NCBI GenBank assembly: GCA_965220205.1
Contig: OZ244812.1
Span: forward strand, 2,089,678 to 2,153,677
Source: Dehalococcoidia bacterium
GTDB lineage: Bacteria > Chloroflexota > Dehalococcoidia > Lucifugimonadales > Australimonadaceae
Direction of reading: 5' to 3'
Length of the DNA stretch: 64,000 nucleotides
Shown here piece after piece: positions 8,572 to 50,512 of the stretch. The notes beneath the pieces are model-generated. The model was not told the origin of the DNA, searched no databases, and worked only from the letters and a program-made list of their open reading frames with translations. A program made the translations under genes and the position numbers. The first letter of the stretch is position 1; every line of letters starts with the position of its first letter.

Positions 8572-8727
8572 ACCGGGAGTCCACTGTAGCATAGGCTCCC
8601 AGGCCCGTTCAATTTTGGCGACGAGTCCGGCGGAGGGGGCCGCCGCCTGATAGGGACGGCTCGCGATGGTATGATGACGAAGGACGGTCGGACGCCGTTC
8701 ACCCCACCTCAGCAGCGGGAGACACGC

Positions 8728-9832
8728 GTGGAAGAGCTCCGAGAACGCCTCAGGACCCTGATCGAACGCCTCGACGGGATTGCGGTGCGTCTTTGACCTC
8801 GTCGGCAAGGACGCGGAGATCTCTCGCCTCGAAACCGTAGCCGGCGAACCTGGCTTCTGGAACGACCCCGAACACGCCCAATCGTCCATGCGGTCGCTCG
8901 CCCGGCTCAGGGAGACGGTGCGGACGTGGCGCGAGCTTCGGGAACGTCTCGCCACGAACCTCGAGCTGATGGACCTTGCCGCCGAGTCGTCGGACCAAGC
9001 GATGCTCGACGAGCTGGCCGTCGAGGCCCAGGACCTCAGCGCGCAGGCCGAGGACCTCGAGTTCGAGCTCACGCTCTCGGGGGAGTACGACGACCGCTCG
9101 GCGATTCTGACGGTCCACGCGGGGGCGGGCGGCACCGATGCGCAGGACTGGGCCGAGATGCTGCTGCGCATGTACACGCGCTGGGCCGAGACGAGGCGCT
9201 ACCAGGCCCGCATCCTCGACCTCTCGCCGGGGGAGGAGGCGGGGGTCAAGAGCGCGACGCTGGAGCTGGCCGGCCCGCACGCCTACGGCTATACGCGGTC
9301 CGAGCGGGGGGTGCACCGGCTGGTGCGCCTGTCGCCCTACGACGCAGCGCACGCGCGCCACACGTCGTTCGCGCTCGTCGAGGTGCTTCCGGAGGCCGAG
9401 GGCGACGTCGATGTCCAGATCGACATGGACGACGTCCACGTCGAGACGTTCAAGGCCAGCGGCGCGGGCGGCCAGCACGTCCAGAAGAACTCGACCGCCG
9501 TGCGTATGACCCACCAGCCGAGCGGGCTGGTCGTGTCGTGTCAGAATGAGCGCTCCCAGCTGCAGAACAAGGAGGCCGCGCTCAAGATACTGCGGTCCCG
9601 GCTGATGCAGATCGAGATCCAGCGCCGCGCCGAGGAGCGGGCCAGGATCAGGGGCGACCACGTTACGGCCGAATGGGGCAACCAGATACGCAGCTACGTG
9701 CTGCACCCCTACAAGATGGTCAAGGACCACCGCAGCGGCTACGAGTCGACGAACCCGGACCTGATCCTCGACGGGGAGCTCGACCCGCTCATGCGCGCCT
9801 ATCTGCTGTCAGGGGTCGGCGCGGCGGAGTAG
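8728..9832 (+). CDS. prfB: peptide chain release factor 2, with programmed +1 frameshift (join 8728..8793, 8795..9832)
   Basis: Frame-0 GTG at 8728 (RBS GGGAG) runs to CTT TGA C at 8791-8797. The +1 frame continues DLVGKDAEISRLE...; SPYD and GGQ motifs present. Confidence 0.93.
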
Positions 9833-9877: not shown

Positions 9878-10621
9878 CTACTGCGCTTCGCCCTCTTCCA
9901 AGGCCGCCTCGCTCTCCCAGTCGACCGCCGGTTTGCCCAGCGATTCCAGGATGGCGTTCACGAAGATCTCGTCTGGGACGGCGCCAACGAACTCGGCGCG
10001 GTCGTTGATGACCGTCTTGGGGACGCCCATCACCTGGTACTCGCGGGCGAGCTCCGGGAACTCCTGACACTCGACGACGTCGGCCTTGATGTGGGGGTTG
10101 GCGAGGGCGAGGGCGTGGGCCGCACGGGCCACACGAGGGCAGTGCGGTCAGGTAGGTGTGACGAACACGCGCAGGTGCACTTCCTCGTCGATGAGGTCGC
10201 GCGCGGCTGCCGCCACCGGCCCCCGCAGCATCGGAGCCTCCTGCGAGACCGACTCGATGTCCGCCAGGACGGTGGGGAACTCGTTGCCGAGGGGCGCGCC
10301 GTAGAAGCGGACGCGGCCTTCGCCGTCGTTTCCGAGGACGACGGCCGGCAGCTGCTCGATCTCCAGGCGCTTGGCCTCGCTCGCGCCGTCGCCGTACGCG
10401 TCGTAGACCTCCAGCGTCAGCTTCGGCGAGATGCTGGTCAGCTCTTGGAGCAGGTCCTGCGTGACCTTCATCAACTCGCCGCCGCCCGATTGCTGACCGG
10501 GCAACACGAGCAGGCTCCGCGCCACGGACTGCGTGAAGAGCCGTACGGTCACGTCGCGGTCGAGAGAGCTCTCGAACCGGGCCGCGAGCATCGCCCGGTC
10601 TTGGTCGCTAAGCATTGCCAT
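9878..10621 (-). CDS. glutaredoxin-like protein disulfide oxidoreductase (two thioredoxin folds) with in-frame TGA at the CxxC position; candidate selenoprotein (UPHC)
   Basis: ORFs 10148..10645 and 9878..10132 share one frame. Read-through gives RVFVTPT-[TGA 10150..10148]-PHCPRVARAAHALALANPHIKADVVECQEFPELAREYQVMGVPKTVIND. Start ATG at 10621 behind GAGGAGGGG. Confidence 0.65.
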
Positions 10622-10790
10622 GTCCCCTCCTCGGGTCCGGACCATTCATTCCGTCATAGCTGTTCAGACTTGGGGAGAGGAACACCCCACCCCCTGTGGA
10701 TACCCGCTTTCGCGGGTATGACGGTGGCTGTCATGCGGTTTCGATCATTGCGTTGCGACGACATAGTACACGCCCCGCGCCGGGACTGCG

Positions 10791-11384
10791 CTAGGCGTCG
10801 TGCGTTCTGCGCCAGACGTAGACCATGCGCTGGGCAACGGTGAGTCCGCCCAACGCGACAATGACGCCGAGCGCGTAGAGCGGGACGCCCGCCAACAGCC
10901 CGACGCCGAGCACGACGATGCGCTCGGGGCGCCCCAGGAAGCCGACGTCGCCCTCGACGCCGAGGCCCTCGGCCCGGGCCCGGGAGTAGCTGACCATCAG
11001 CGACATCGCAAGGGCGCCAAAGCTGAGGTACGCGCCCAACTCGTGTCCGTCGCGGACGAAGAACACGAGGAGGCCGAAGAGCGCGGCGGCCTCGCCGAGC
11101 CGGTCGATGACGGAGTCGAGGAACGCGCCGAACCGGGATGCGGTGTTGGTGAGCCGGGCGACGGCGCCGTCGAGCATGTCCATGGACGCGCCGCCGAGCA
11201 GCACGGCGCCGCCGGCTAGGAGGTTGCCCTCGGCGATGAGGTACGCGGAGAGCCCCGAGACGCCGAGGCCCGCGACGGTGACGGCGTTGGCGGATACATG
11301 GAGCGCGATGAGGACGCGGGCTATGGGCTCGCTGCCATAGCGGACCGCCCATCGCTTGGCGCGGAGGCGCGGCGCGCTCAGCAT
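10791..11384 (-). CDS. CDP-alcohol phosphatidyltransferase (probable phosphatidylinositol-phosphate synthase)
   Basis: DMLDGAVARLTNTASRFGAFLDSVIDRLGE matches DGx2ARx8Gx3Dx3D. Multiple TM helices. Sits in an operon with ino1. Confidence 0.85.
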   Translation of the reverse strand: MLSAPRLRAKRWAVRYGSEPIARVLIALHVSANAVTVAGLGVSGLSAYLIAEGNLLAGGAVLLGGASMDMLDGAVARLTNTASRFGAFLDSVIDRLGEAAALFGLLVFFVRDGHELGAYLSFGALAMSLMVSYSRARAEGLGVEGDVGFLGRPERIVVLGVGLLAGVPLYALGVIVALGGLTVAQRMVYVWRRTHDA

Positions 11385-11407
11385 CGCTCCAGCCCTGCGT
11401 GGGAGGC

Positions 11408-12598
11408 TCACGAGGCGGCCTTGGTTTCGCGGCGGCGGCGCAGCAGCGTCTCGTAGTAGTCGAGCACGCGCTCCGCAACGGTCTCCCACCGGTACTGCTC
11501 GACCGTCACGCGGCCGCGAGCGCCCATCTCCCGCCGCAACTGCTTGTCGTCGAGCAGGCGCCGGATGGCGGCTGCGAGCTCCGCTTCGTTCTTGGGAGGC
11601 ACGAGGAAGCCCTCGACGCCGTTCGAGATCACGCTGCTGAAGCCGTCGATGCGCGTCGCCACGATCGGTTTGCCGGCGGCCATGGCCTCGGTCAGGATGA
11701 GCCCGAAACTCTCCCGGCCCGTGTTCGGCGCGCAGAAGATGTCGGCGGCCTGGTAGTAGCGGGGCTTCTCCTCCTCAGGCACGGGCCCGACGAACTCCAC
11801 GTCCTGCAGGTTGCGCTCGCTGACGAGGCCGAGCACGTCCTCGCCGGGGTTGCCGCCGCCGACGATGATGAGGCGGGTGTCAGGGTAGTCCCACTTGAGC
11901 CGTCCGTAGGCCATCACCAGGTACTTCAGGCCTTTCCGCCGCTCCAATCTGCTCAGAAACAGCAGGTTGGTCTTGCCGTCGTTGTACTGCGCAAGCGGCT
12001 CGAGCGGCGTGGCGAAGCGGTCGACGTCTACGCCGTTCGGGATCACTTCGTACTTGCCGGGGTAGAACTTGCTCACGAAGTCCCGGGCGGGACCGGACAC
12101 GGCGATGCGCCCGTCGAGCCTGCGGAACCACCTGCGCGACATGTAGCGCCAGATGCGGTAGAAGCGGGTGCCCCGGAACGTGTGGAACGTGCCGACGTTC
12201 ACCGCCCGCGAGGAATGGAGGACCGTCAGGGGCAGGGCCGGCGCCATCGGTTCGTGGAGGTGAACGATGTCGAACTTCTCCTCCTCGAGGAGCTGCTTGA
12301 CACGGGGCTCGAGCCATACGGAGAAGGTGACGCGCGCCACGGCGCCGCCGCTCGGGATGGGGACGGGCCGTCCCATGGGGATGAAGTCCGGTTCGGGCGG
12401 GCGGTCCCTCGAGTTCGCCAGGGGCGCAATGATCTTGACTGTATGTCCCCGGCCCCGGAGCTGGCGGGCCAGGCTCGTGATGTGGTCGTTGACGCCCCCG
12501 GGCGACCCGTAGTCATAGGGCGAGACCAGAGCGACCTTCAATGGGCCCTGGCCACGCCGGGGCTCCCCCGAGAGCAACACGTCCGCCGAATCGGTCAC
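11408..12598 (-). CDS. GT4-family glycosyltransferase (PimA-like)
   Basis: 396 aa. [14 protein letters not shown] at the N-terminus and [16 protein letters not shown] (EX7E) at the C-terminus. Confidence 0.85.
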
Positions 12599-12602
12599 TC
12601 GG

Positions 12603-13718
<1,116 letters not shown>

Positions 13719-36064: not shown

Positions 36065-36520
36065 CTAGGCTGAGAGCCCGACCAGCGAGCGCACGAGCGC
36101 TTCCTTCGCTGTGGGGATGCCGCAGCGCGACGCCAGGCCGCCGAGGCCCGCGGTCCGCGAGGCCGGGCCTCCGGCGAGCAACCCCGCCGCGAATTCTTCG
36201 GCTTGCCGCTCGGCCTTGAGCCGCGCGACCCACTGCCACGACTCGACGTAGAGGCTCGTGCCCGTGTGGAGCAGATGGTGGCCGACGGAGTGCGCCGTGA
36301 GCCAGCGCACCCACGGCTCGGGCAGGCGGTCGTCGATTCCGATAGTGCGCTCGACGATGACCTCGCGCACGCGCCCGGCGAACCGCCACGGCTCGACCTC
36401 GAGGCCGAGGTGCTCGAGGACCGGCCTCAACTCCGCGCCCGGCCCGATCCCCAGCTCGTCGGCGAGCGCGCAGCCTCGTTCGAACGATCTCATCGCCGGT
36501 CCTCCGTGCTCGTCATTCAT
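36065..36520 (-). CDS. ImmA/IrrE (M78)-like protein with HSxxH in place of HExxH
   Basis: LTAHSVGHHLLH and downstream ERQAEEFAAGLL match the M78 layout, but the catalytic Glu position is Ser. Start ATG at 36520 lies in the IS481 target duplication. Confidence 0.7.
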   Translation of the reverse strand: MNDEHGGPAMRSFERGCALADELGIGPGAELRPVLEHLGLEVEPWRFAGRVREVIVERTIGIDDRLPEPWVRWLTAHSVGHHLLHTGTSLYVESWQWVARLKAERQAEEFAAGLLAGGPASRTAGLGGLASRCGIPTAKEALVRSLVGLSA

Positions 36521-37565
36521 GTAGATGTTAGGTAATTCGTTGACAGATTTGGCTGGAGAACGAGCCAGTCTGGAGGCGAAGATGCGCGACAACAGCACCG
36601 ACCGCACCATCGAGCGGAACTATGTTCAGAAGTGGCGGTTCCTCATCCGGGAGTACGAACAGGTCAAGGCCAAGAGCCACCCCAAGTTCCGCTTCGTCCA
36701 GGACTTCTACGCCTTCCATGGGACCAACCGCCAGACCTTCGCCAAGTACTACAACCGCTATCGGCAGTCCGGCAACGGCGACGCCCTGCTGCCTGGCAAG
36801 CGGGGACCCCGTTGGAAGAGCCGCCGCACCCTCCCCTTCATCGAGGAGAAGGTGCTCGAGCTCCGGCGCAAGGGCATCAACCGCTACGAGATCTATGCCA
36901 TACTCAGGCCGGTGCTGAAGTCCCACACGCCAGCGCCCTCGACCATCTACGCCATCGCCCAGCGCCACGGCCTGAACCGGTTGACCAAGCCCATGCGGGA
37001 GTCCAAGCGCCAGATCATCAAGACCCGTGCCGGGGAGCTGGGCCACCTGGACTGCCACCACCTGAGCAAGGACCTGCTCGTGGGCGCCAGGCGGCGCTCC
37101 TACCTGGTGTGCGTGATCGACGCCTGCACCCGTCTGGCCTGGGCGGAGGTGGTGGACGACCTGAAGAGCCTGAGCGTCATGTTCGCGGCGCTGAAGAGCA
37201 TCAACCTGCTGAACGCCGAGTATGGAGTCCGGTTCGAGGCCATTCTCACGGACAACGGGGCCGAGGTGGCTTCGCCGGCCAACAAGGCCAACCACCCGAT
37301 GGAGCGGATGTTCCAGGAGCTGGGCATCACGCACCGCTACACGCGGCCCTACCGGCCGCAGACCAACGGGAAGGTCGAGCGGTTCTGGCGGACGCTGAAC
37401 GAGGACCTGCTGGACGAGACGACGTTCGAGTCGGTGGAGGAGCTGAAGGAGGAGTTGATGCAGTACCTCGTCTACTACAACACCGCACGGCCCCACCAGG
37501 GCCTCGGGGGAAAGACCCCCCTCCAAACCCTGCAAAATCTGTCAACGAATTAGCTGACACATACA
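36521..37565 (+). mobile_element. IS481-family insertion sequence (1045 bp)
   Basis: About 33-bp imperfect terminal inverted repeats sharing TAATTCGTTGACAGATTT. 6-bp direct repeat ATTCAT at 36515-36520 and 37566-37571. Confidence 0.88.
36525..37553 (+). CDS. IS481-family transposase (DDE/rve integrase core)
   Basis: HLDCHHL..., VIDACTRLAW, TDNGAE and YRPQTNGKVERFWRTL motifs, 342 aa. Confidence 0.92.
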   Translation: MLGNSLTDLAGERASLEAKMRDNSTDRTIERNYVQKWRFLIREYEQVKAKSHPKFRFVQDFYAFHGTNRQTFAKYYNRYRQSGNGDALLPGKRGPRWKSRRTLPFIEEKVLELRRKGINRYEIYAILRPVLKSHTPAPSTIYAIAQRHGLNRLTKPMRESKRQIIKTRAGELGHLDCHHLSKDLLVGARRRSYLVCVIDACTRLAWAEVVDDLKSLSVMFAALKSINLLNAEYGVRFEAILTDNGAEVASPANKANHPMERMFQELGITHRYTRPYRPQTNGKVERFWRTLNEDLLDETTFESVEELKEELMQYLVYYNTARPHQGLGGKTPLQTLQNLSTN

Positions 37566-37650
37566 ATTCATCGTGGGGGGCAACGGCCATTGTCAGCGCC
37601 GCCGCGGCGCGCCGCCAGGGTCCGCTGTCACTGCAGGGCGGGGGGCTCGG

Positions 37651-38010
37651 TCAATCGGAGGAGCGCTTGAACCGCACGTAGCGGGCGAACTCCTTGACCT
37701 CGCCGAGCTCTTCTTCTGTGAGGTCGCCGAACTCGTAGAGGCGGGCAAGGTCGGTGGCGCGAACCGGGTTCTCGATCTCGTCCCGGGAGAGGTGGCCGGC
37801 CCGGAACAGGAGCTCGGACACCGGCAAGCCCATGGCCCCGGCGAGCTTCCTGAGGGTCGAGGGCCGCGGCACGTTCCCGTGGTTGAAGAGGGCGCTCAAT
37901 GTCGTGTGCGTAATGCCGGCGCGCTGGGCGAGCGCGAGCGCCGAGCTGTGGTGCTCGTCGATCCACTGACGAATGAACGACGCGAGCTGTAGGGAGTCTG
38001 ACGTTGCCAC
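37651..38010 (-). CDS. XRE-family HTH transcriptional regulator
   Basis: LALAQRAGITHTTLSALFNHGNVPRPSTLRKLAGAMG HTH. The N-terminal part of ORF 37651..38199 runs into repeat DNA, so the start is set at GTG 38010 (uncertain). Confidence 0.7.
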   Translation of the reverse strand: MATSDSLQLASFIRQWIDEHHSSALALAQRAGITHTTLSALFNHGNVPRPSTLRKLAGAMGLPVSELLFRAGHLSRDEIENPVRATDLARLYEFGDLTEEELGEVKEFARYVRFKRSSD

Positions 38011-38085
38011 GCGTCGGATTGTACACCATCGGTTGTCCGCGACACGCGGCTGTTCAGACTTGGAGAGAGGAACGTCTCTCGCCGA

Positions 38086-38617
38086 CAGACGAGACCTTGC
38101 ATGGCTGCTTGACGAGCGCTGTTCTTCCCACCCGCCCGCCCCAAACGTTGGTGTGGGGGACACCCCCACGCCCCTGGCAGAGGGCTCAGCCCTCTGCACT
38201 CCCCCCGCTGGGCGACTGCGAGAACCGCCCCCAACGAGTTATGCAAAGGTCTCGCAGACGGGGAGAGGACTTTTGAGGCAATGACGGGGACGTGGCGTCA
38301 GGGGTGGGTTCCCGTGTCAAGCACGAGAATGACGGAACGGGGCGCGGGTGTGTAGGCGGGCGGAGCGCGGCCCTCTCTCTAACTCCCCCCGCAGACGAGA
38401 TCTTGCATAGCTGCTTGACGGCGCTGTTCTTCCCGCCCGCCCACCCGCAACGCTTGGTGGGGGACACCCCCACGCCCCCGGCAGAGGGCTTTGCCCTCTG
38501 CACTCCCCCATTGGGCGACTACAAGAGCCGCCGCTACGAGTTAGGCAAAGGTCTCCCGCGCGGCCCGCCGGGGGCGCATGGGTTCCCGTGTCAAGCACGA
38601 GAACGACGGAACGGGGC
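38086..38617. repeat. two tandem copies (about 258 and 226 bp) of a structured repeat with two hairpins plus a REP hairpin
   Basis: Each unit has CTGCTTGACG..GCTGTTCTTCCC, GTGGGGG-ACA-CCCCCAC, GCAGAGGGCT..GCCCTCTGC, TTATGCAAAGGTCTC and CCCGTGTCAAGCACGAGAA. A third copy lies inside the MITE at 35859..36010. Confidence 0.85.
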
Positions 38618-38654
38618 GGCGACGCTGGTCGTCCGCGACACGCGGCGGTATCAG

Positions 38655-40103
38655 ATGCGAGGCCTTGGAGAATGTCAGATAACTGTCAGTGATAGTCGTG
38701 ATTATGCCAGAGCGCAACAGAGGAGGGTCACGCCATTGCCGGACGGCGATCGAGGGAGCGAGGGGCCGGACGCCTCAGTCCTGCTTCAGTACGAGAACGA
38801 CCCGCGGGGCTTTGTCGCGCAAGTGCTGGGCGGGACGGGCGAGCCGTACGCCAAGCAGGAGGAAATGCTCGACGCGGTTGCGACGCGCCGCAGGGTGACG
38901 GTGGTGGGCTGCAACGGCTCGGGGAAGGACTGGGCGGCGGCCCGCATTGTGCTCTGGTGGGTCGCGACGCGCCCGCGCGCGAAAACGATCGTCACGGGAC
39001 CGACGCAGCGTCAGGTGGAGGAGGTGGTGTGGCGGGAGATGCGCATCGCCTACGCGACGGCGGCCGGGGCGCTTCCGGGACAGATGCACGCGTCGCGCTA
39101 CGTGATCGACGATCAACGCTTCGCGCTCGGCTTCGCGACGGACCACCCGTACAACCTGCAGGGGTTCCACTCGCCGAGCCTGATGGTCGTGGTCACGGAA
39201 GCGCATGCGGTTGCTCAGGAGCATATGAACGCGCTCAAGCGCCTCAACCCGAAGCTGGTGTTGCTGACGGGCAACCCGCTGACCGTGAGCGGAGAGTTCT
39301 ATGACTCGCACCACGGCAACAGCACGCTCTACGCCCAGATCGGGATCAGCGCGTTCGATACGCCGAACGTAGCGTCGGGCAGAAACGACGCCGTCCCGGG
39401 GATGCTCACGATGGAGGACGTCGAGGAGCGCCGCGTCGAGTGGGGCGAAGACCACCCGATGTACGTCGCGTCGATACTGGGGCAGTTCCCCGAGTCGCTG
39501 GAAGACACGTTGGTCTCGCGGACGCAACTGAGCGACGCGGTGGAGCGGTGGCGCCTGACGGCGCCGGAATCGGGCAAGGAATGGGTGATGGGGGTGGACG
39601 TCGCCCGTTTCGGCGCGGACAAGTCGGTCCTGTGCCTGCGGCGCGGCGGACGGGTGGAGGAGATCGTGAGCCGTCGCGGGCTCAGCACGATGCAGCTGGC
39701 CGGACTCATCGTCGACCGACTGAAGCGCCACGACATCAGGGCGGTGTTCGTCGACGCGGCGGGCGTGGGCGGGGGCGTGGTCGACCGGCTGAAGGAGAAC
39801 AACCATCCGGTGATCGAGGTGCAGGTAGGGGCGTCGTCGAGCAACTCGGAGCGGTACGCGAACCTGCGCGCCGAGCTGTTCTGGGAGCTGCGCCGGCGGT
39901 TCAGGGAAGGCGCGATCGCGATTCCCGACGATCCGGAGCTGGCAGGCCAGCTGCTGGCGATTCGATACGAGTACACGTCGAGCGGACAGGTCCAGCTCGA
40001 GAGCAAGAAGAAGATGAAGGCCCAGGGCGGCGCGTCGCCCGACAAGGCGGACGCGCTGGCGCTCGCGTTCATGGGAACGCCGTCGCTGGACGTTTGGATA
40101 TAG
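38655..40103 (+). CDS. phage terminase large subunit
   Basis: Walker A VVGCNGSGKD, Walker B LMVVVTEAH, nuclease-domain motifs MGVDVARFGADKSV, VFVDAAGVGGGVVDRL and SPDKADALALAF. The upstream part of ORF 38292.. is repeat DNA. Confidence 0.88.
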   Translation: MRGLGECQITVSDSRDYARAQQRRVTPLPDGDRGSEGPDASVLLQYENDPRGFVAQVLGGTGEPYAKQEEMLDAVATRRRVTVVGCNGSGKDWAAARIVLWWVATRPRAKTIVTGPTQRQVEEVVWREMRIAYATAAGALPGQMHASRYVIDDQRFALGFATDHPYNLQGFHSPSLMVVVTEAHAVAQEHMNALKRLNPKLVLLTGNPLTVSGEFYDSHHGNSTLYAQIGISAFDTPNVASGRNDAVPGMLTMEDVEERRVEWGEDHPMYVASILGQFPESLEDTLVSRTQLSDAVERWRLTAPESGKEWVMGVDVARFGADKSVLCLRRGGRVEEIVSRRGLSTMQLAGLIVDRLKRHDIRAVFVDAAGVGGGVVDRLKENNHPVIEVQVGASSSNSERYANLRAELFWELRRRFREGAIAIPDDPELAGQLLAIRYEYTSSGQVQLESKKKMKAQGGASPDKADALALAFMGTPSLDVWI

Positions 40104-40254
40104 GGGAATCTCTGAACAGTCGCCGATGCCCTCAGCAGTGCGGAAGGGAGACTGGGCTCCCCCAATCCGTTCTGGAACCCCCCTTCGACAGGCTCGGGAC
40201 AGGCTTCGACAGGCTCAGGGCGAACGGATTGGGACGGAGTTATTCAGAGGTTCC
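40104..40254. mobile_element. MITE (151 bp), same family as 20504..20659
   Basis: GGGAATCTCTGAAC ... TTCAGAGGTTCC, flanked by TAG on both sides. The left TAG is the terminase stop codon. Confidence 0.85.
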
Positions 40255-40331
40255 TAGCCGCGAGGGCAGGCGCTAGCGGCGGAGAGGTCCGAGCAAAGAA
40301 GCCGGGAAGCTATGACAGGAGGTAACGAGAG

Positions 40332-41513
40332 ATGCTGAAGTCGATGCGGAGACTGTTCGAGACGCCGGCGCCGACGGAACGCGCGAACGCGCCGCTGGCG
40401 GTGGGCATGCGACTGTTGCAGCCCGACCGCGGCGTTGGCGGCGAGTGGCAGTCGCCGGTGTACGGCGAGTACTACGCCCGCAGCGCCGACGTGTACGCGG
40501 CGGTGAAGCTGCGGGGCGAGGCGGTGGCGCGGCCCCCGCTGGTCGTGCGGACGCGGGACGCGTCGGGAGTCTCGCGCGCCGCGCCGCCAAGCCACCCGGT
40601 GCAACATCTCCTCGATTCGGTCAACCCGTTCTGGAGCAAGTCGGGGTTGCTCATCGCGACGGAGACGTACCTGTGCCTATGGGGCTCGGCGTTCTGGTTC
40701 CTCGGCCATTCGGAGCGGGCCGGGAGCGTTCCGGACGAGATATGGCCGCTCCGGCCGGACCGCGTGCGGGTGGTGCGCGACGCGAGGCGGTACATATCGG
40801 GGTTCGTGTACACGGAGGCGGGCCAGGACCTGCCGATGCTGCCCGAGGAGGTGGTCTGGTTCCGCTACTTCAACCCGTTGGAGGAGTTCTCGGGCCTCTC
40901 GCCGATGGCGGCGGCGCGGCTGACGGCCGATATGGGCATGGACGCGCTCCGCTTCAATCGCGAGTTCTTCCGGAACGGGGCCCAGCCGCAGGACCTCGTC
41001 TTCCGGGCGCGAGGGCCGGTGACCGACGACCAGGTGGCGGACTTCTACGCGCGGTTGGAGCAGCGGTTCACGGGTCCATCGCGGGCGCACCGGCCCATCG
41101 TCACGGGCGACGGGTGGGAGGTGCAGCGACTCGGCGTCAACCAGCGGGACATGGAATGGCTGGCGGGCCTGCGGTGGAGCTTGGAGGGCGTGGCGCGGGT
41201 GTTCGGCGTGCCGCTGCCGCTACTCGAGGACTTCTCGCACGCGACGCTGAACAACGTGCGCGAGGCGCGTCGGATGTTCTGGGAGAAGACGATGGTCCCG
41301 GAGACGGTGTTCCTGACCGACGCGATCAACCAGGGGTTGCTGCCGCGCCTGGGCCCACAGGCGCAGGGCGCGGAGGTCGCGTTCGACCTGAGCGTCGTCG
41401 AAGCGCTCGGCGAGACGGAGTCAGAGCGAACGCGGCGGCACGTGGCGCTGGTCAACGCGGGGATCATGACGGTCGACGAGGCGCGCGCCGAGCGGGGTCT
41501 TGGCGCGGGCTGA
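40332..41513 (+). CDS. phage portal protein (HK97-type)
   Basis: 393 aa, RBS AGGAGG. Position between terminase and protease, and portal-like sequence pattern (by eye). Confidence 0.8.
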   Translation: MLKSMRRLFETPAPTERANAPLAVGMRLLQPDRGVGGEWQSPVYGEYYARSADVYAAVKLRGEAVARPPLVVRTRDASGVSRAAPPSHPVQHLLDSVNPFWSKSGLLIATETYLCLWGSAFWFLGHSERAGSVPDEIWPLRPDRVRVVRDARRYISGFVYTEAGQDLPMLPEEVVWFRYFNPLEEFSGLSPMAAARLTADMGMDALRFNREFFRNGAQPQDLVFRARGPVTDDQVADFYARLEQRFTGPSRAHRPIVTGDGWEVQRLGVNQRDMEWLAGLRWSLEGVARVFGVPLPLLEDFSHATLNNVREARRMFWEKTMVPETVFLTDAINQGLLPRLGPQAQGAEVAFDLSVVEALGETESERTRRHVALVNAGIMTVDEARAERGLGAG

Positions 41514-41602
41514 GGGGTACAGACCGGGAAGATGTGATAGAACCTCAGTGCTGGAAGTCCCCGCAAGGGGACGGTCAAGCGCGACCCGCGAGGGGAGGAA
41601 TC

Positions 41603-42643
41603 ATGCGATATCGGGAAGTAGGGAACACGGGGATCCGCATATCCGAGATCGGGTTTGGCGGCGGCGGCAACGCCGGGCTCATGGTGCGGGGCAGCGCCGA
41701 GCAACAGCTGGACGCCATCGAGCGGGCCATCGAGTTGGGGATCAACTACTTCGACCAGGCCCCCGACTACGGCGACGGCGTCTCCGAGACGAACCTCGGC
41801 CGCGCGCTCAAGGAGCTGGGCGTTCGTCCGTACATCGGCACCAAGGTCGAGGTGCGAGCCGACAACCTCTCCGATATCGCGGGACACGTCGTTCGCTCCG
41901 TGGATGAGAGCCTCGACCGGCTCGGCGTGGAGTACGTCGACTTTCTCCAGATACACAACGGCCCGGTGTCCGAGCGTTCAGAGCTCTCGGGCCGCAGCTA
42001 CACGCACCTGTGGATCGAGCACTACTTGGGCCCCGGCGGCGCACTCGAGGGCATGCAACGGGTCCAGCGCGCCGGGAAGACCCGGCACATCGGTTTCATC
42101 ACGCGGGGGAACGACGCCCCGGCGGCGCGGCGGCTCATCGACACGGGCGCGTTCAGCCTGATCAACGCGTCGGTGAACCTGTTCAACCCCTCCGCGTCGG
42201 TGCGGCCCTACGGGATGCGGCTGCGGGCGGACTACGGGGGAATCCTGGGCTACGCCGCGGACCACGGCGTGGGCGCCGCGATCTACAGTCCGCTCGCCGG
42301 GGGAGCCGTGACCGACAACGCGGCCGTCGGCGGTCCGCCGCACCCGTTGGGCCGCGGCGCCCGCGACCCCGAGAGCGGAGAGGTCGCGGCAGCGCAGTCG
42401 CGAGCGCTGCGGTTCCTCTCGCGGGCGCTGAGTCCCGACTCGCAGATGGACGACCATAGCCTCGCCGAGGCCGGCCTGCGATGGGTGCTGGCGCAGAAGG
42501 GCGTCACCGTGGCGCTCGGCGGATTCTCCGACCGCCAACAGGTCGAGGAGAACGCCTCCTACTCCGGAAAGGGGCCCCTTTCCGAGGAGAACATGGCGCG
42601 CCTCGAACAGGCGTGGCGCGGGAACTTCGGGTTGGACGGCTAG
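41603..42643 (+). CDS. aldo/keto reductase
   Basis: MRYREVGNTGIRISEIGFGGG..., INYFDQAPDYG, IGTKV and YSPLAGG motifs. RBS GGAGGAA. Confidence 0.9.
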   Translation: MRYREVGNTGIRISEIGFGGGGNAGLMVRGSAEQQLDAIERAIELGINYFDQAPDYGDGVSETNLGRALKELGVRPYIGTKVEVRADNLSDIAGHVVRSVDESLDRLGVEYVDFLQIHNGPVSERSELSGRSYTHLWIEHYLGPGGALEGMQRVQRAGKTRHIGFITRGNDAPAARRLIDTGAFSLINASVNLFNPSASVRPYGMRLRADYGGILGYAADHGVGAAIYSPLAGGAVTDNAAVGGPPHPLGRGARDPESGEVAAAQSRALRFLSRALSPDSQMDDHSLAEAGLRWVLAQKGVTVALGGFSDRQQVEENASYSGKGPLSEENMARLEQAWRGNFGLDG

Positions 42644-42803
42644 GGCGTCTATCGTCAGCGCTATTCAGTGATGGCTCGCACGTCGGCTGAGTACGCCACA
42701 CGCCAACGGAGGACGCCATGAGCCCCGGCCGCCTCGCAGCAATCGGCATGATCGCCGCACTCATGGGATTCGTGGCCTTCGGAATCGCCCGCGACTTGGC
42801 TAA

Positions 42804-43996
42804 GGAATCTCTGAACAAGTCTATAGGTTGAGGCAGTATCCTGGCAGTCACCCAGTGGCGCCAGGGAGTGAAGCGATGATGGACCAACCGACCTTTGCAG
42901 ACGTGGACTACGAGAGCAAGAAGCGCAAGACCCGCAGGGAGCGATTTCTCGAACGCATGGGCGGGCTGATCCCCTGGGAACGGCTGGAAGGGCGCATCCG
43001 TCCCTTCTACCCCACGGCGGGCCGGGGACGCCATCCGTATGCCCTGTCGGCGATGCTGCGGATTCACTGCGTGCAGCTGTTCTACAACCTCAGCGACCCC
43101 GGCATGGAGGACCTGCTGTACGACGTGGAGTCGGTGCGGCGGTTCGTGGGCTTGAAGCTGTCGGAGCCGCTGCCGGACGAGACCACCATCCTGAACTTCC
43201 GTCATCTGTTGGAGGAGCACGAACTGGGGGAGGGACTGTTCGCGGAGATCAAAGGGCATCTGGCGTCCCAGGGACTCCTGCTCCAGGAAGGGACAATCAT
43301 GGACGCGAGCATCATCGAGGCGCCGTCGTCGACGAAGAATCGAGCGGGTGCGCGAGACCCGGAGATGCACCAAGTGAAGAAGGGGAACAGGTGGCATTTC
43401 GGGATGAAGGTGCACATCGGGGTGGACGCGGAGACGGGGGTGGTGCACAGCGTCGCGACGACGCCGGCCAATGTGAACGACGTGACGGAAGCGCACCGGT
43501 TGCTGCACGGCGGCGAGTCGCAGGTGTGGGGCGATGCCGGGTATCAGGGAGTCCAGAAGCGGGCGGAGCATCGGGGGCTGGAGGTGGAGTGGCAGGTGGC
43601 GATGCGACCGGGCCAACGTCGGCAGTTGGAGCCGGGAAGCCCTGAGGCGTTGGCGGAGAAGGGCAAGGCGTCGGTCCGGGCGAAGGTGGAGCATCCGTTC
43701 CTGTACGTCAAACGGCACTTTGGCTACGCCAAGGTCCGCTACCGGGGGCTGGCCAAGAACACGCAACGGCTGATGGTGCTGCTGGGGCTGGCGAACCTGA
43801 TGAGAGCCCAGCGGTGCTTGGCGGCATGACGGAGGCGCAGTGGGTTCAGATCGGGGTTGGGAGCAGGGAATCCGCCCCAGCAGGGTCGGTAGAAGACCCC
43901 CAACAGCCCCGTTCACGGCACCAGCAGAGGGCTGCGAATCGCTGAAGAGCCCCCCACCAACACCACTCGGCCGACTGTGAGTTGTTCAGAGGTTCC
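42804..43996 (+). mobile_element. IS5-family insertion sequence (1193 bp)
   Basis: Inverted repeats GGAATCTCTGAACAAG / GTTGTTCAGAGGTTCC. 4-bp target duplication CTAA at 42800-42803 and 43997-44000. Confidence 0.9.
42876..43829 (+). CDS. IS5-family DDE transposase
   Basis: MMDQPTFADVDYESKKRKTRRERFL..., IMDASIIEAPSS, WHFGMKVHIGVD, GDAGYQG and the C-terminal YRGL..N motif typical of IS5. Confidence 0.92.
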   Translation: MMDQPTFADVDYESKKRKTRRERFLERMGGLIPWERLEGRIRPFYPTAGRGRHPYALSAMLRIHCVQLFYNLSDPGMEDLLYDVESVRRFVGLKLSEPLPDETTILNFRHLLEEHELGEGLFAEIKGHLASQGLLLQEGTIMDASIIEAPSSTKNRAGARDPEMHQVKKGNRWHFGMKVHIGVDAETGVVHSVATTPANVNDVTEAHRLLHGGESQVWGDAGYQGVQKRAEHRGLEVEWQVAMRPGQRRQLEPGSPEALAEKGKASVRAKVEHPFLYVKRHFGYAKVRYRGLAKNTQRLMVLLGLANLMRAQRCLAA

Positions 43997-44702
43997 CTAA
44001 CGATGAGTTGACCGAACCGCTTGTTAGACTCGCCTGGGTAATCATCGGCGGCCTCTTGGCGTACAAGGTCTACGCCAACCGGCCAACCGCAGAGCCGTAC
44101 GCAGACGGAAAGCGCACTTTGTCGACCAACCGGGCGGTCTCGCTCGCCCTCCTGCTCTTGCCAGCGAGCTCCTGGGCCGGTCGCGCCACCGTCGACATCA
44201 TCCTCTACAACGAGTTCGGAACGTCCGCGGTCAAGTTCGCACTCGCGGCCGTCCTAGTCGGAATCGCCGCCATCGTCTACGCAAGACGGCCTGTCCATTG
44301 GTTCGACGAGGAACGGCGTCGCCGTCGGCGTGAGAACAACCAAGGGCCGCCCCCTCCCCTTCCGAGAGACGCCGAAGCGATGCTTCGCCTCGACAATCCC
44401 CCGAACAGACGCATGCGCTGATCGCGGTGAAGTCCTGTTCCCACTCCTTGAGAGTGGGGGCGACACCCCCCACGGCCGTCCTTGTTATTGACGTCGTTAC
44501 TGTGACATCGTGTCGTTGTATCTATGACGCTTCGCGCCTAGACTGATACCTACAGCGCATAAGCGGGGGACGAGCCCCCGGCGCTCCTTCGAAGGAAGGA
44601 CGCTGGGGGCTTTGTCGTGAGGGCCCGCCGCAAGGGACGCCCCGGCGGTCGTCTCTTCTCATCCGAGGCGTTGTTCAAGGTGCTGTTCGAGGGGAGGCGT
44701 GC

Positions 44703-45398
44703 ATGAGCACAACGGAGACCGAGACCGGGACCGACGGCGCGCGGTGGAGTCGAGACGTTTGGGAACGTGAGCGACTGCTCGAGTCGCTCGAATCGTACCG
44801 GCGCGGCCTGGCGGACGCGCCGACGGTGCAGAAGCACGCAGTAGGCCAGGCGCTCGTCCCGAACACCGACCGTCCGCTGACGTTCGTCGCGTCCGACGAG
44901 GCGGAGGACCGCCTGGGCGACATCGTCCGGGCCGGCGGGTGGGACCTGGACGCGTACAAGCGCAACCCCGTCTTCCTGTGGGCCCACGACTACACGCGGA
45001 CGCCGATCGGGCGCAGCGACTGGGTCGGCGTCGAGGACGGGCGGCTGCTGGCGACGGTGGGATTCGCTCCCACGGCGTTCGCGCAGGAAGTGGAGACGTT
45101 GTACCGCCACCGTTTCCTGCGGGCCGTGAGCGTGGGGTTCCGCCCCCAGGCGTTCACGTTCCGCAAGGGGCGCAACGGGGGCCTCGACGGGGTGGAGTAC
45201 TCGAAGCAGGAGCTGTTGGAGGTCAGCGCCGTGCCGGTGCCGGCCAACCCGCGGACGCTGGCCAAGGCGCTCGAAGGGGGTCTGGCCGTGCCGCGACTGC
45301 GGCCGCTGTTCACGCCCGGCGGCGGCGAGGAGGTGTGCGAGGACGCCGCGGCGGAGGTGATCGCGGGGCTGCGCCAGCTGCGCGCGAGCCTGGCGTAG
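44703..45398 (+). CDS. HK97-family prohead protease
   Basis: FVASDEAEDRLGDIV...NPVFLWAHD...AVSVGF pattern of S78 prohead proteases. Confidence 0.85.
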   Translation: MSTTETETGTDGARWSRDVWERERLLESLESYRRGLADAPTVQKHAVGQALVPNTDRPLTFVASDEAEDRLGDIVRAGGWDLDAYKRNPVFLWAHDYTRTPIGRSDWVGVEDGRLLATVGFAPTAFAQEVETLYRHRFLRAVSVGFRPQAFTFRKGRNGGLDGVEYSKQELLEVSAVPVPANPRTLAKALEGGLAVPRLRPLFTPGGGEEVCEDAAAEVIAGLRQLRASLA

Positions 45399-45514
45399 GG
45401 AGCGGCTCTCGTTGGCGCCGACTCGGCGGGCAGGCGGACCGAGTGGACGAAGCGAAGAGAACGGAAGGAAGAGCACGGAAGAATGAAGAGGGAAGAAGGG
45501 AAGAAGGAGGCCCG

Positions 45515-46840
45515 ATGCCAGGCGTAGCGGAGATACAGCGAGAGATAGCGCAGACCCAATCCTTCGTGCAGGAGCGGCTCGACCCGATGCGGCGGGAGGT
45601 CGGTCTGTTGCGCGAGGAGCAGGAGCGGCTGGCGGGCGAGGTCCGCACGCTGCTTGCCCAGCAGCGGAGCGAGCGCCGCGACGCGGTGCTGAGCCGAGCG
45701 TCCAACGACCGTGTGCGCGTGCGCGGCGGACAGCTCGACGGCTTCGACATGGTCGACCTCGCGATCATGCGCAGCCTGTTGACCGCGCAGCAGGCCCGGC
45801 CGCAGGACTACGACTCGCGCGCGTTGCAGGCGTGGGAGCAGAGCGTGCAGCGCGCCATGGACTCGACGACCGCGGGCGCCGGCGACGAGCTGGTGGGCCG
45901 CGAGGAGGCGCGGCAGCTCTGGGCCGACGTCAACGTGGAGACGGCCGTCGCCTCGCTGTTCGAGACCGTGACGATGCCCAGCAACCCGTTCGACATCCCG
46001 CTCCAGTTGGGCGACGTCAACTGGTACCCGGGGACCGCCAATGTCGCGGTCTCCTCGACCAACCTCTCGACGGCGAAGCAGACGCTGACGGCCTACGAGC
46101 TCGTCGGCATGGTGCCCTGGGCCTACGAGCTGGACGAGGACGCGGTGATCGCGATGATGGCGGAGGTCCGGGCGACGCTGCTGCGCAACTCGGCCCAAGT
46201 GCTCGACGACATCGTCCTCAACGCGGACACGTCGCTCACCGGGAACATCAACTACGACGGGACCGCGCTCACCGCCACGACTGTGGGCCACGCCCACTAC
46301 CTCGTCGGGTTCGACGGTCTGGTCCACCTGCCGTTGGTCGACAACACGGCTATGCGCAACGACCACAACGCGGCCGTCTCCGCCGATATGTTCAACGAGC
46401 TCAGGCGCAAGCTGGGCAAGTACGGTCTACGCCCATCGGAGCTTGCGTTCGTGACGGACGTCAACACGTTCATCGCGGTCCAGAGCATCACCGAGTTCCA
46501 GACCGTGGACAAGCTCGGCACCAACGCCACGCTGCTGACGGGCCAGCTCGGCTCGGTCGAGGGCGTCCCCGTGGTCGTGTCGGAGCAGATGGCGCTCGCG
46601 GACGCCGACGGCAAGGTCACGGCGGCAGGGAACGTGGCCAGCACGGGCCGCCTGCTGCTGGTCAACCGGACGCAATGGCGCAAGGGCTTCAAGCGGGAGC
46701 TGCTCATCGAGACGGAACGCGACGTGCAGCGGCGGCAAAACGTGATGGTGGTGAGCATGCGCGTGGCGTTCGCCGAGCGCACCGGGTCGCGGACATCCGC
46801 CGCCCACACCGCGCTGCAGTTCAACATCACGGGCGTGTAG
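45515..46840 (+). CDS. HK97-fold major capsid protein
   Basis: 441 aa. N-terminal coiled-coil delta-like region, then capsid-like core. RBS GAAGGAGG. Position after the protease. Confidence 0.82.
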   Translation: MPGVAEIQREIAQTQSFVQERLDPMRREVGLLREEQERLAGEVRTLLAQQRSERRDAVLSRASNDRVRVRGGQLDGFDMVDLAIMRSLLTAQQARPQDYDSRALQAWEQSVQRAMDSTTAGAGDELVGREEARQLWADVNVETAVASLFETVTMPSNPFDIPLQLGDVNWYPGTANVAVSSTNLSTAKQTLTAYELVGMVPWAYELDEDAVIAMMAEVRATLLRNSAQVLDDIVLNADTSLTGNINYDGTALTATTVGHAHYLVGFDGLVHLPLVDNTAMRNDHNAAVSADMFNELRRKLGKYGLRPSELAFVTDVNTFIAVQSITEFQTVDKLGTNATLLTGQLGSVEGVPVVVSEQMALADADGKVTAAGNVASTGRLLLVNRTQWRKGFKRELLIETERDVQRRQNVMVVSMRVAFAERTGSRTSAAHTALQFNITGV

Positions 46841-46851
46841 GAGTGGCCGCA

Positions 46852-46875
46852 GGGGCGCCTCACGAGAGGCGCCCC
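46852..46875 (+). terminator. 10-bp GC hairpin after the capsid gene (no U-tract)
   Basis: GGGGCGCCTC-ACGA-GAGGCGCCCC. Confidence 0.4.
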
Positions 46876-46933
46876 GCGGCAACGGTGTGGCTCGTACGAA
46901 ACGACAACGAACGGACAAGAGGAGGCAACTCTC

Positions 46934-47377
46934 ATGGCAGACCCTCAGCGGGATGCTCCCATCGGCGAGATTCTGACGGCGTTGTTCCCGGCGTCCGGGA
47001 CGGCGGTGCTTCCCAAGGCGGCGAAGGCGCCGCTGGCCCAGACAGCGGGCAACGCGGGCGTGCTCTCGTGGCAGAACCCGGAGCCGGTCGCGGTGCTGGC
47101 GGCGGTGGTGATCGACGTCACCGCGGCCGCGGCAGGCCAGACAGCGGACGTCGGCGTCGACAAGGACGGCGCGGGCTCCAGCGACAACCTGCTCGACGGC
47201 GTGTCCCTGGCGAAGATTGGCGCTCTGTCGAGCTTCGCCAACTCCGGCACGCACGGCGCCGCCTTCCGCAAGGTCGACGCCCGTGGCGGCTCGCGCGACT
47301 ACATCACGGCGACGGCCAGCGCCGATCCGTCCGCGCTGGCCGGCAACGCCTACGTCATCTATGTCCCCGTCACCTGA
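46934..47377 (+). CDS. hypothetical head-module protein (147 aa)
   Basis: Good coding composition. Position directly after the capsid gene (decoration or scaffold-type slot). Confidence 0.55.
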   Translation: MADPQRDAPIGEILTALFPASGTAVLPKAAKAPLAQTAGNAGVLSWQNPEPVAVLAAVVIDVTAAAAGQTADVGVDKDGAGSSDNLLDGVSLAKIGALSSFANSGTHGAAFRKVDARGGSRDYITATASADPSALAGNAYVIYVPVT

Positions 47378-47424
47378 AGGGCCGGCAGCCCGAGAGCCGG
47401 TCGACCATAGAGAGAGGAGGGTCC

Positions 47425-47898
47425 ATGCCCACGACACCACCGTTCAGACGCGCCGCGCGGTCCGACTACGCGCCGAGCGTGCGCCCCCGGACCGCGGGGC
47501 CGGACGGTCAGCCGCAACTGACGCCGGGCTACCTGTCGGACCTGTCCGACACGAAGTTCCTGTATGTCTTCAGCGCTGGCCGGATAACCAGGCGCGCGAC
47601 GCTGGCGACGCCCTCCAGCGGCATGCGCCTGAGGGTCATACGCGTCGCGGTCCATCAACTAGTCTCGGACGGGGTGCACTACGCGGAGCTCTACTTTGGC
47701 GCCGGCGTAAACATCTCCATCCACCCCGACAAAGCCATCGACTTCATCCGGGTCCCCGACCAGGGCGAAGGGTCGTCCCGGTCGTGGGGCCGTGGCCGCG
47801 GACCCGTGGGGCAGCGGAACGAAGTGCTGAGCATGAGGTGGACGTTCGCGCCCGACGCCTCGCACCGCGTCATCGTCGAGTACACGGAGGAGAGATAG
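47425..47898 (+). CDS. hypothetical protein (157 aa)
   Basis: ATG behind GAGAGGAGGG. C-terminal part of long ORF 45832..47898; only this part looks coding. Confidence 0.55.
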   Translation: MPTTPPFRRAARSDYAPSVRPRTAGPDGQPQLTPGYLSDLSDTKFLYVFSAGRITRRATLATPSSGMRLRVIRVAVHQLVSDGVHYAELYFGAGVNISIHPDKAIDFIRVPDQGEGSSRSWGRGRGPVGQRNEVLSMRWTFAPDASHRVIVEYTEER

Positions 47899-47899
47899 C

Positions 47900-48718
47900 A
47901 TGGCGCGCGAAGCATACCGGTCCCTCTATGGCGACCTCGCCAAGCTCAAGGGCGCGTCGCTGCTCGACGGCCCCGCGGACGACTCGGCGAACGACGACGC
48001 GCTGTTCCAGCTGCTGCTGGCCGTGTCGGCGCATGTGGACAGCCTCTGCAACCGTCACTTCTACCCGCTGACGGAGACGCGCCGCTTCGACGGCACGGCC
48101 GAGGCGCAGCTCGCTGTCCCCGACCTCATCTCGGTCTCGAGCCTCAGGTCGGACGATGACGACGACGGGATATACGAGACGACGTGGGCCGACGCGGACT
48201 ACGAGCTCACGCCCCAGAACGCGGCCCCGACGGCGCACTGGGGCGCTCCGCACCAGGCGCTCCGGGTGCGCTCGCACGGGGCCAAGCAACAGTTCCAACG
48301 AGGCCATAGCCGCTACGAGATCGCGGCGGTCTGGGGCTACCGCTTCCACCGGGAGCCGTCGGGCTCCCTGCTCGCCGCTGCGGTCTCCGACGCGGCGACG
48401 TCCGTGCAGGTCGATTCAGGCGCGGACTTCGCGCCCGGCCAGACTATCGTGATCGAGTCGGAGCAACTCTTGGTTACGGCGATTTCGAGCAACGCCTTGC
48501 AGGCGACCCGCGGCCTCAACGGGACGACTGCCGCCGCCCATGCGAACGACAGGGCGGTGGACATCCTGCGATGGCCCGCTCCCGTGGAACGCGCGGCGCT
48601 GATCAACGCTGCCCGCATCTGGGCGAGGGCGCCCGCGTTCGAGCCGTTCTATGTGGACGTCGACCTCGACACGGATGTCCGCCTGCTGCTCGAACCCTAC
48701 CGCAGAATGCCCGGGTAG
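47900..48718 (+). CDS. putative head-tail connector (gp6-like N-terminus) protein
   Basis: DDALFQLLLAVSAHVDSLCNRHF resembles the gp6-type connector signature. 272 aa. Confidence 0.55.
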   Translation: MAREAYRSLYGDLAKLKGASLLDGPADDSANDDALFQLLLAVSAHVDSLCNRHFYPLTETRRFDGTAEAQLAVPDLISVSSLRSDDDDDGIYETTWADADYELTPQNAAPTAHWGAPHQALRVRSHGAKQQFQRGHSRYEIAAVWGYRFHREPSGSLLAAAVSDAATSVQVDSGADFAPGQTIVIESEQLLVTAISSNALQATRGLNGTTAAAHANDRAVDILRWPAPVERAALINAARIWARAPAFEPFYVDVDLDTDVRLLLEPYRRMPG

Positions 48719-48721
48719 GCT

Positions 48722-49030
48722 GTGACGACGCACACGCAACGAGAACGGCTCGCGTCGCTGGAAGCGCGACAGCTGGGCCACGACCGCGAACACGGGCTGG
48801 TGGACCGCGTGTGGTCGGCGAAGCTGGACGCCATCGACGCGCGGGTTCGGAGCATCGAGCGCATCCTGCTGGAGGTCCCCATCCACGGCCGGCCCAACGA
48901 ATCGCAGGCGGCGGGAAGGCTGCGTCTGTCGAAGCGGGACGTGGGGGTGATGAGCGGCAGCGCCGCCGCGGCGTCGGCGGGGTGGTGGTTGGTGGAGGCG
49001 GCGATGTGGCTGCTGGGGGGCGGCGGCTAA
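48722..49030 (+). CDS. hypothetical protein with C-terminal TM helix (102 aa)
   Basis: Coiled-coil N-terminus and hydrophobic tail AAAASAGWWLVEAAMWLLGGGG. GTG start. Confidence 0.45.
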   Translation: MTTHTQRERLASLEARQLGHDREHGLVDRVWSAKLDAIDARVRSIERILLEVPIHGRPNESQAAGRLRLSKRDVGVMSGSAAAASAGWWLVEAAMWLLGGGG

Positions 49031-50475: not shown

Positions 50476-50481
50476 CGAGAC

Positions 50482-50512
50482 GGCCACCGTTCCTCCGGCG
50501 GTGGCCTTTTTT
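50482..50512 (+). terminator. riboswitch expression-platform terminator
   Basis: GGCCACCG (50482-50489) ... CGGTGGCC (50499-50506) followed by TTTTTT. Confidence 0.8.

Follow-up and report, generated by a model that had tools for sequence, protein, structure and literature searches.

A 64,000-nucleotide stretch of a Dehalococcoidia bacterium genome (GenBank assembly GCA_965220205.1, contig OZ244812.1, positions 2,089,678 to 2,153,677; referred to below as the window) carries on its minus strand, at 10621..9878, a gene for a predicted protein disulfide oxidoreductase (PDO) with an in-frame TGA at 10150..10148. This is very probably a genuine selenoprotein gene, in which the TGA serves as a selenocysteine (Sec) codon. 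As an earlier note made from the DNA letters had described, two minus-strand open reading frames (ORFs), one upstream (10645..10148) and one downstream with a GTG start (10132..9878), share a single frame and are separated by the TGA and exactly five codons (CCG CAC TGC CCT CGT). When the TGA was read through, the translation ran ...HLRVFVTPT*PHCPRVARAAHALALANPHIKADVVECQEFPELAREYQVMGVPKTVIND... to a TAG stop at 9880..9878. The GC content at third codon positions was 0.90 on either side of the TGA in this frame, and among all TGAs of the window only the one at 10150..10148 was flanked on both sides by coding signal. The shared-frame arrangement around the TGA exceeds what is expected by chance. 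Since the orthologues begin with MAML, MALL or MPLL, the probable start codon is the ATG at 10621. A scan around the gene turned up neither a sigma-70-like promoter nor an intrinsic terminator. Its features, including a hairpin that resembles a selenocysteine insertion sequence (SECIS), are listed here with the evidence for each.

9878..10621, minus strand: complete coding sequence of the predicted selenoprotein, 247 codons, closed by the TAG at 9880..9878 (translation, TIGR02187.2, PDB matches, orthologue starts)
10626..10630, minus strand: putative Shine-Dalgarno-like GGAGG, 4 nt before the ATG at 10621 (read off the sequence)
10187..10621, minus strand: N-terminal thioredoxin-like unit, residues 1-145, without CxxC (alignment with PDOs; DUF7088 below its cutoff)
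10148..10150, minus strand: UGA codon 158, predicted to be read as Sec (alignment with the first Cys of CPYC/CPHC; TGA conserved at 33 loci)
10139..10150, minus strand: predicted redox motif U158-P-H-C161, TGA CCG CAC TGC (P, H and C amino-acid invariant in nine orthologues)
10114..10135, minus strand: SECIS-like hairpin (codon invariance, pairing in Sec forms, register, folding energies)
9944..10186, minus strand: C-terminal thioredoxin unit, residues 146-226, with UPHC and the cis-Pro loop V200-P201-K202 (Pfam Thioredoxin_3)

The TGA was found to be conserved among relatives of the gene. Among the 120 closest public protein clusters, 84 were 141-175 residues long and ended exactly in VFVTPT; the other 36 were mostly full-length (about 215-280 residues), and 30 of these showed CxxC at the site, in the form CPYC, CPHC, CGYC, CPFC, CQYC or CKFC. 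In the DNA of four truncated clusters (L001, L002, L004 and L005), the TGA was followed in frame by PHCPRVARAAHA..., and the second half had been called as a separate 79-88-aa 'Thioredoxin_3' gene. A species scan, in which one genome per GTDB species was used and 80 loci were fetched, gave TGA at this column in 30 loci, while the remaining loci in which the motif was located had TGC or TGT and none had TAA or TAG. The column therefore holds either TGA or a Cys codon, as the earlier note had predicted for the orthologues. The closest GTDB relatives were uncultured Dehalococcoidia and Chloroflexota, and the TGA forms spanned Dehalococcoidia, Chloroflexota, SAR202, Anaerolineales, Sphaerobacter, Desulfosporosinus, another Bacillota, Acididesulfobacter and Eisenbacteria.

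All of the 33 TGA loci examined, which range over 31-98% protein identity, had 71-97 intact in-frame codons after the TGA, and at none of them was the column occupied by TAA or TAG. In the 16 loci compared, the 75 residues downstream of the TGA were 43-80% identical to the window protein and the 150 residues upstream 31-70%, the downstream value being always the higher. The four codons right after the TGA, encoding P-H-C-P, were amino-acid invariant and synonymously variable in the nine closest species. As the amino acids are fixed while the synonymous sites vary, these codons are translated.

Profile searches were made with the product in which U was replaced by C. The NCBIfam model TIGR02187.2 'PDO_seleno_TRX' matched residues 6-226 of 247 with 203.4 bits (cutoff 185), Pfam Thioredoxin_3 matched residues 149-226 with an E value of 5.8e-20, and DUF7088 matched residues 19-100 with 27.1 bits, just under its cutoff. 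The best PDB matches were the PDOs 1A8L from P. furiosus (E=1.5e-34) and 2AYT from Aquifex aeolicus (E=6e-29, residues 17-240). Further PDB relatives were 1J08 (P. horikoshii) and 2HLS (Aeropyrum pernix) and, more remotely, the N-terminal domain of AhpF (1ZYN, 1HYU). V200, P201 and K202 were invariant alignment columns. Judged from these matches, the product is a PDO made of two thioredoxin folds and a homologue of the AhpF N-terminal domain. Alignment with 1A8L places the stop codon at the first Cys of VFVTPTCPYCP, so that the placement of the TGA at the first Cys of a CxxC in a PDO-like second thioredoxin fold, proposed beforehand, was borne out. The motif FVTPTCPYCP, which the earlier note had given for this place, was also correct, since the P. 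furiosus protein reads VFVTPTCPYCP at the aligned place and the full-length relatives read VFVTPTCPYCP or CPHCP.

The mRNA can form the hairpin GUGGCC-CGUGC-GGCCCAC (10132..10115), which begins 15 nt past the UGA. Its core upper stem is GGCC/GGCC (10130..10127 with 10121..10118) and its apical loop is CGUGC (10126..10122). The lower stem can adopt two registers, either GU/AC with a bulged C, as drawn in the earlier note (10132..10115), or CGUG/CACG with U 10131 bulged. For the first of these, the folding energy was -5.9 kcal/mol in isolation and -7.4 kcal/mol in context. With the first 15 nt blocked, as they would be by the ribosome, the minimum free energy (MFE) fold was CGUG-U-GGCC CGUGC GGCC CACG (10135..10114), with the bulged U on the 5' side and an energy of -10.9 to -12.0 kcal/mol (-12.0 alone). 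The bulged-U lower stem fits the clade of the window protein and is the best fold there; it is not conserved family-wide, while the GGCC/GGCC core is.

The hairpin is under selection at the RNA level. In nine orthologues that are 59-72% identical to the window protein, codons +6..+11 (GTG GCC CGT GCG GCC CAC) were wholly invariant, the CGT Arg codon included. Across codons +5..+11 the synonymous difference was 1/238 compared to 0.40 gene-wide, which makes this the lowest 7-codon window in the gene; for six out of six invariant codons the naive P was about 7e-5 and the run-length permutation gave p=0.014. In a fixed register, Sec forms had 5.31 of six pairs, against 4.41 after synonymous resampling (p=1e-6) and 4.13 in Cys forms (p=6e-6). 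The complete upper stem of four pairs was present in 78% of the Sec forms vs 30% of the Cys forms, and pairing in register was seen in 87% of cells vs 23-51% when the partner was slid. The Cys form at L014:3481 (L014) has the same peptide (PRMARAAHA) written in other codons, and no hairpin. At one pair, GC was replaced by CG in four sequences, a covariation score that was reached in 4 of 500 shuffles.

The published model of the bacterial SECIS has a loop of 3-9 nt, an upper stem of 4-16 bp and a G at loop position one or two, usually followed by G or U, a distance of 16-37 nt from the UGA and an MFE of at most -7.5 kcal/mol (PMC13188914). With its 5-nt loop, 4-bp upper stem, loop sequence C-G-U and UGA-to-loop distance of 21 nt (15-nt spacer plus 6-nt 5' arm), the hairpin agrees with the first four terms of this model. 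The energy limit is just missed in the register of the earlier note (-5.9 to -7.4 kcal/mol) and is reached only with the extended CGUG/CACG lower stem. The resemblance to a bacterial SECIS suggested beforehand thus stands for loop, stem, loop G and spacing, and for the energy term only with a lower stem that is unconserved across the family. Both the consensus (PMC13188914) and the E. coli fdhF SECIS share with the hairpin the 5-nt loop, the second-position G followed by U and the 4-bp upper stem, as well as, in the lowest-energy register, the bulged U on the 5' side. Unlike in the common SECIS N1-N2 pair, the flanking loop bases of the hairpin, C and C, cannot pair. Apical loops in other clades were AGGUU, CGGGU, AGGCU or GGUU.

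The biology itself is not new. A selenoprotein family of this kind was predicted about twenty years ago and was counted in a survey of 2006, which recorded it from Carboxydothermus hydrogenoformans and Symbiobacterium thermophilum (PMC1794560). The UxxC motif is listed for the family of AhpF-N-terminal-domain-like proteins and PDOs in two reviews (PMC13188914, PMC9312934), one of which also reports the family in Asgard archaea. The gene belongs to this known family, because it shares both model and motif with the other members. Like the TIGR02187 selenoproteins, the window protein scores above the cutoff of that model, carries in its second fold a single predicted Sec in place of the first Cys (UxxC) and has a bacterial-type SECIS-like element just downstream. 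The prototype hosts, in contrast, are Firmicute/Symbiobacterium and the host of the window gene is an uncultured, Dehalococcoidia-like bacterium, and in the clade of the window protein the N-terminal unit has lost its CxxC. The likeness to the prototype is one of model and motif rather than of direct alignment with the prototype sequence.

Neither the N-terminal unit of the window protein nor that of its clade mates (L001, L002 and L008-L013, also L080) contained a C..C motif, while most other Sec-form PDOs keep a CxxC there (CRYC, CQYC, CPTC and others). The classical archaeal and Aquifex PDOs are defined by CxxC in both units, a pattern from which the window protein departs. As the N-terminal unit has no CxxC, the clade would have a single Sec-Cys redox centre. 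The PDOs 1A8L, 1J08, 2AYT and 2HLS resemble the window protein in being stand-alone proteins of two thioredoxin folds, and both the VFVTPTCPYCP site and the VPK cis-Pro loop align (residues 54-228 for 1A8L and 17-240 for 2AYT; E values of 1e-34 to 4e-17 across PDOs). The window protein differs from them in the predicted Sec, which would replace the N-terminal Cys of the C-unit motif, in the N-terminal unit without CxxC, and in having no counterpart of the 5-residue insertion that 1A8L carries after the ALAN-equivalent position.

In the AhpF N-terminal domain (1HYU, 1ZYN, 4O5Q) two thioredoxin folds are likewise fused, with the sole redox centre in the second, and AhpF models matched residues 51-229 of the window protein. 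This centre of AhpF shuttles electrons to peroxiredoxin. Unlike AhpF, the window protein has no FAD/NADH reductase module, the similarity is much weaker (E about 5e-10), and a peroxiredoxin partner is conjectured by analogy. With one redox centre, the clade of the window protein is nearer to the AhpF N-terminal domain than to the two-centre archaeal PDOs.

By analogy with known bacterial Sec decoding and with the PDO and AhpF families, the gene may work as follows. The single minus-strand gene (10621..9878) would yield a 247-residue cytoplasmic PDO of two thioredoxin folds. A ribosome at the UGA (codon 158) would expose the small GC-rich hairpin 16-37 nt downstream, whose stem GGCC/GGCC and loop CGUGC sit in the V-A-R-A-A-H codons of helix alpha-1. 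The hairpin would recruit SelB.GTP.Sec-tRNASec, which would outcompete release factor 2 (RF2), and Sec would be inserted. The sole U-P-H-C centre in the second fold would then cycle between selenolate/thiol and selenenylsulfide. As in archaeal and Aquifex PDOs and the AhpF N-terminal domain, this centre would probably be reduced by thioredoxin reductase and pass electrons to peroxiredoxins or protein disulfides. A thioredoxin reductase gene, trxB, is present in the window at 56532..57455 on the plus strand (TIGR01292, 369.7 bits, cutoff 343), 46 kb from the PDO gene and unlinked to it; its product is a plausible reductant for the PDO.

Several observations weigh against the selenoprotein interpretation. 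Within the 64-kb window no selA, selB, selD or tRNA-Sec was found by tblastn with E. coli SelA, SelB and SelD, the sole tRNA being tRNA-Pro. When a profile of three Dehalococcoidia SelDs was used, no SelD was found on the source contig or on other contigs with a Sec-form PDO among the best 120 of at least 7,999 matches, and a search with the SelD fragment of L038 returned short fragments only, none of them on the source contig. The family is graded 'predicted with high confidence' in the reviews, and in the literature no report of selenium incorporation was found for any family member. Concerning the hairpin, the stability was unexceptional with respect to both dinucleotide shuffles (z=-0.47) and synonymous-codon shuffles (z=+0.34 for the window); the existence and position of the hairpin given in the earlier note were upheld. 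The unconstrained MFE fold of the region was another structure, of -14.9 kcal/mol, beginning immediately past the UGA. The covariation is modest and thin, with one pair changed in four sequences. The peptide alone gives about 4.4 of six pairs, a high background, and two Cys forms (L027 and L039) keep a similar palindrome. For these last two reasons the case for the hairpin rests mainly on the synonymous-site result. The Cys form at L027:3451, with its GUGGCC..GGCCCAC hairpin, may reflect a recent change from Sec to Cys.

The mean synonymous-shuffle z was -0.47 for Sec forms vs -0.26 for Cys forms, which was not significant, and the raw difference in energy between Sec and Cys forms was dropped because it is confounded by GC content (0.66 vs 0.53). 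RNAalifold on 30 Sec forms recovered only 3 pairs, with -1.9 kcal/mol. Rfam at gathering thresholds returned only one tRNA and one thiamine pyrophosphate (TPP) riboswitch in the window, and around the gene only chance matches at E up to 10.

It is conceivable, though rather unlikely, that the gene encodes a selenoprotein while the drawn hairpin is a by-product of the V-A-R-A-A-H codons and the functional SECIS lies elsewhere, for example in the -14.9 kcal/mol fold right after the UGA. The ordinary energy of the hairpin, the different unconstrained fold, the pairs predicted by the peptide alone and the palindrome retained in some Cys forms would all agree with this explanation. However, the -14.9 kcal/mol fold depends on CCG at codon +1, where L001 has CCC and L013 has CCA, and is thus unconserved; its loop is 11 nt from the UGA, lacks a G at loop position one or two and would lie inside the ribosome with the UGA in the A site. 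The synonymous invariance, in contrast, matches the drawn hairpin exactly, and it is this hairpin that becomes the MFE fold with the first 15 nt blocked.

Read-through of the UGA with a near-cognate Cys or Trp tRNA, or by way of a reassigned code, rather than as Sec, would agree with the failure to find Sec-decoding genes for the source genome in the window and SelD searches, but was considered very unlikely. The stop codons of the 42 confident ORFs of the window were TAG in 26, TGA in 11 and TAA in 5. Because TGA ends 11 of these ORFs, the genetic code is not reassigned, and only one in-frame coding TGA was present. Moreover, the site is the nucleophilic Cys of CxxC, a classic Sec/Cys position, and the hairpin downstream of it is under RNA-level selection. 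As a side observation, the stop use seems TAG-rich for a genome of 67% GC, in which TGA would be expected to be the commonest stop.

Related Dehalococcoidia also argue against such a read-through, since they have selD near a Sec-form PDO gene and a Sec-type SelD. A Sec-form PDO gene is present in L038, a 3.4-Mb Dehalococcoidia chromosome (OX638353.1), with selD 3 kb downstream of it; the C-terminus of selD is at L038:6298..6657 on the minus strand, with thiG- and thiE-like ORFs between selD and the PDO gene. Two contigs that matched the L038 SelD fragment carry selD with TGA at the Cys17 position, HCAG-U-AAK (L091:9438 and L092:9588). A GC-rich hairpin follows the TGA in both; apparent frameshifts were seen, which are possibly long-read assembly errors, and the called genes are reduced to the C-terminal 147-195 residues. 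No selA or selB was found near selD on L091 or L092. The best 120 of at least 7,999 SelD homologues were all 306-326 residues long, lengths that fit N-terminal clipping at a UGA at the Cys17 site. The proximity of selD in L038 and the Sec-type SelD of Dehalococcoidia provide indirect support for Sec decoding. Insertion of Sec at codon 158 is what we infer from the sequence comparisons. In the window itself, the tblastn matches were to IF2 only, apart from a weak, spurious SelB match at 39692..39360, antisense to an ORF of the phage region.

Two separate genes, a 157-aa N-terminal protein ending at the TGA and an 84-aa thioredoxin-like protein starting from the GTG at 10132, are what every public gene call makes of this locus, and the GTG does lie five codons past the TGA. 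This explanation was judged highly improbable. The intervening P-H-C-P-R codons are conserved in amino acid and vary only synonymously, the 84-aa product would be without strand beta-1 and the whole CxxC centre, the Cys-type relatives are single proteins of 215-250 aa, and the stop is always TGA and never TAA or TAG. Two independent genes are excluded by the conserved TGA together with the translated downstream codons. The alternative raised in the earlier note, a TGC-to-TGA nonsense mutation that turned a Cys-type PDO gene into a pseudogene, would need a change of one base and fits with gene callers stopping at the TGA, but retains next to no credibility, since the TGA is common to 33 loci in several phyla, none of which has a downstream frameshift or stop, and the downstream part is, in the 16 loci compared, the better conserved.

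Within the selenoprotein interpretation, we suggest tentatively, and with more doubt than confidence, that the clade of the window protein is a distinct subfamily abundant in Dehalococcoidia/SAR202-like bacteria. It would have lost the N-terminal CxxC and kept one Sec-Cys centre, and would use a minimal SECIS with a 4-bp core in the codons of helix alpha-1, at or below the energy limit of SECIS predictors. If so, Sec would be used in Chloroflexota far beyond the three selenoproteins of the 2006 count, and this use would be missed systematically by gene callers and SECIS-based searches.

In practice, what matters most is that this gene is split systematically in public gene calls; in the public protein catalogues searched, 84 of the 120 nearest clusters end at the UGA. 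With the gene split there and the second half called as a 79-88-aa 'thioredoxin', none of the predicted products contains the redox active site. In related bacteria, selD is clipped likewise. A bacterial SECIS in a GC-rich genome can also be thermodynamically unremarkable; here it was detected only through synonymous-site conservation and the comparison of Sec with Cys forms. A family member with verified selenium incorporation would still be useful.

Two further observations were made among the relatives. In an Anaerolineae metagenome-assembled genome (MAG), an in-frame TGA was found at a UxxC in a small glutaredoxin-like ORF (L084:4448; VIVYTTPT*PYCYQAKEFLSRQGVPF), about 1 kb from a Cys-form PDO gene; this ORF probably encodes a Grx-type selenoprotein. 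A Stahlbacteria MAG had two PDO-like CPxC sites 1 kb apart (L087:1119 and L087:2142), the first of which hits a stop soon after (CPHCPGTVACD*), and this first copy may be a truncated duplicate.

The genes around the PDO gene are housekeeping genes and give no functional clue. Immediately on its upstream side, 10791..13718 on the minus strand encodes inositol-3-phosphate synthase, a GT4 glycosyltransferase and phosphatidylinositol-phosphate synthase. L001, L002, L004 and L088 have this gene order as well, and its conservation suggests that these Dehalococcoidia make phosphatidylinositol-type lipids. On the downstream side, prfB, encoding RF2, lies convergently on the plus strand at 8671..9832. 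At 8791..8797 it has CTT TGA C, the canonical site of a programmed +1 frameshift, with ORF1 at 8671..8796 and the main frame from 8795. As prfB adjoins the predicted Sec gene, two UGA-recoding events would occur within 1.4 kb. The adjacency of prfB and the PDO gene was not conserved in L001 or L002.

Near trxB, the window encodes a TlpA/ResA-like thiol-disulfide oxidoreductase (61320..61967), a chlorite-dismutase-family protein (60210..60905) and an IscA/HesB-type protein that is not of the Se type (59307..59765). A prophage-like stretch spans about 36500..49000, and the TPP riboswitch noted above precedes thiG. The features of these two regions were as follows.

36525..37553: rve integrase, prophage-like stretch
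38292..40103: 603-aa ORF with no family match, prophage-like stretch
40332..41513: phage portal protein, prophage-like stretch
42828..43829: DDE insertion sequence (IS) transposase, which may be inserted, prophage-like stretch
44703..45398: prohead protease, prophage-like stretch
50380..50490, plus strand: TPP riboswitch (Rfam RF00059, 55.3 bits), directly upstream of thiG
50533..51318, plus strand: thiG, directly after the TPP riboswitch

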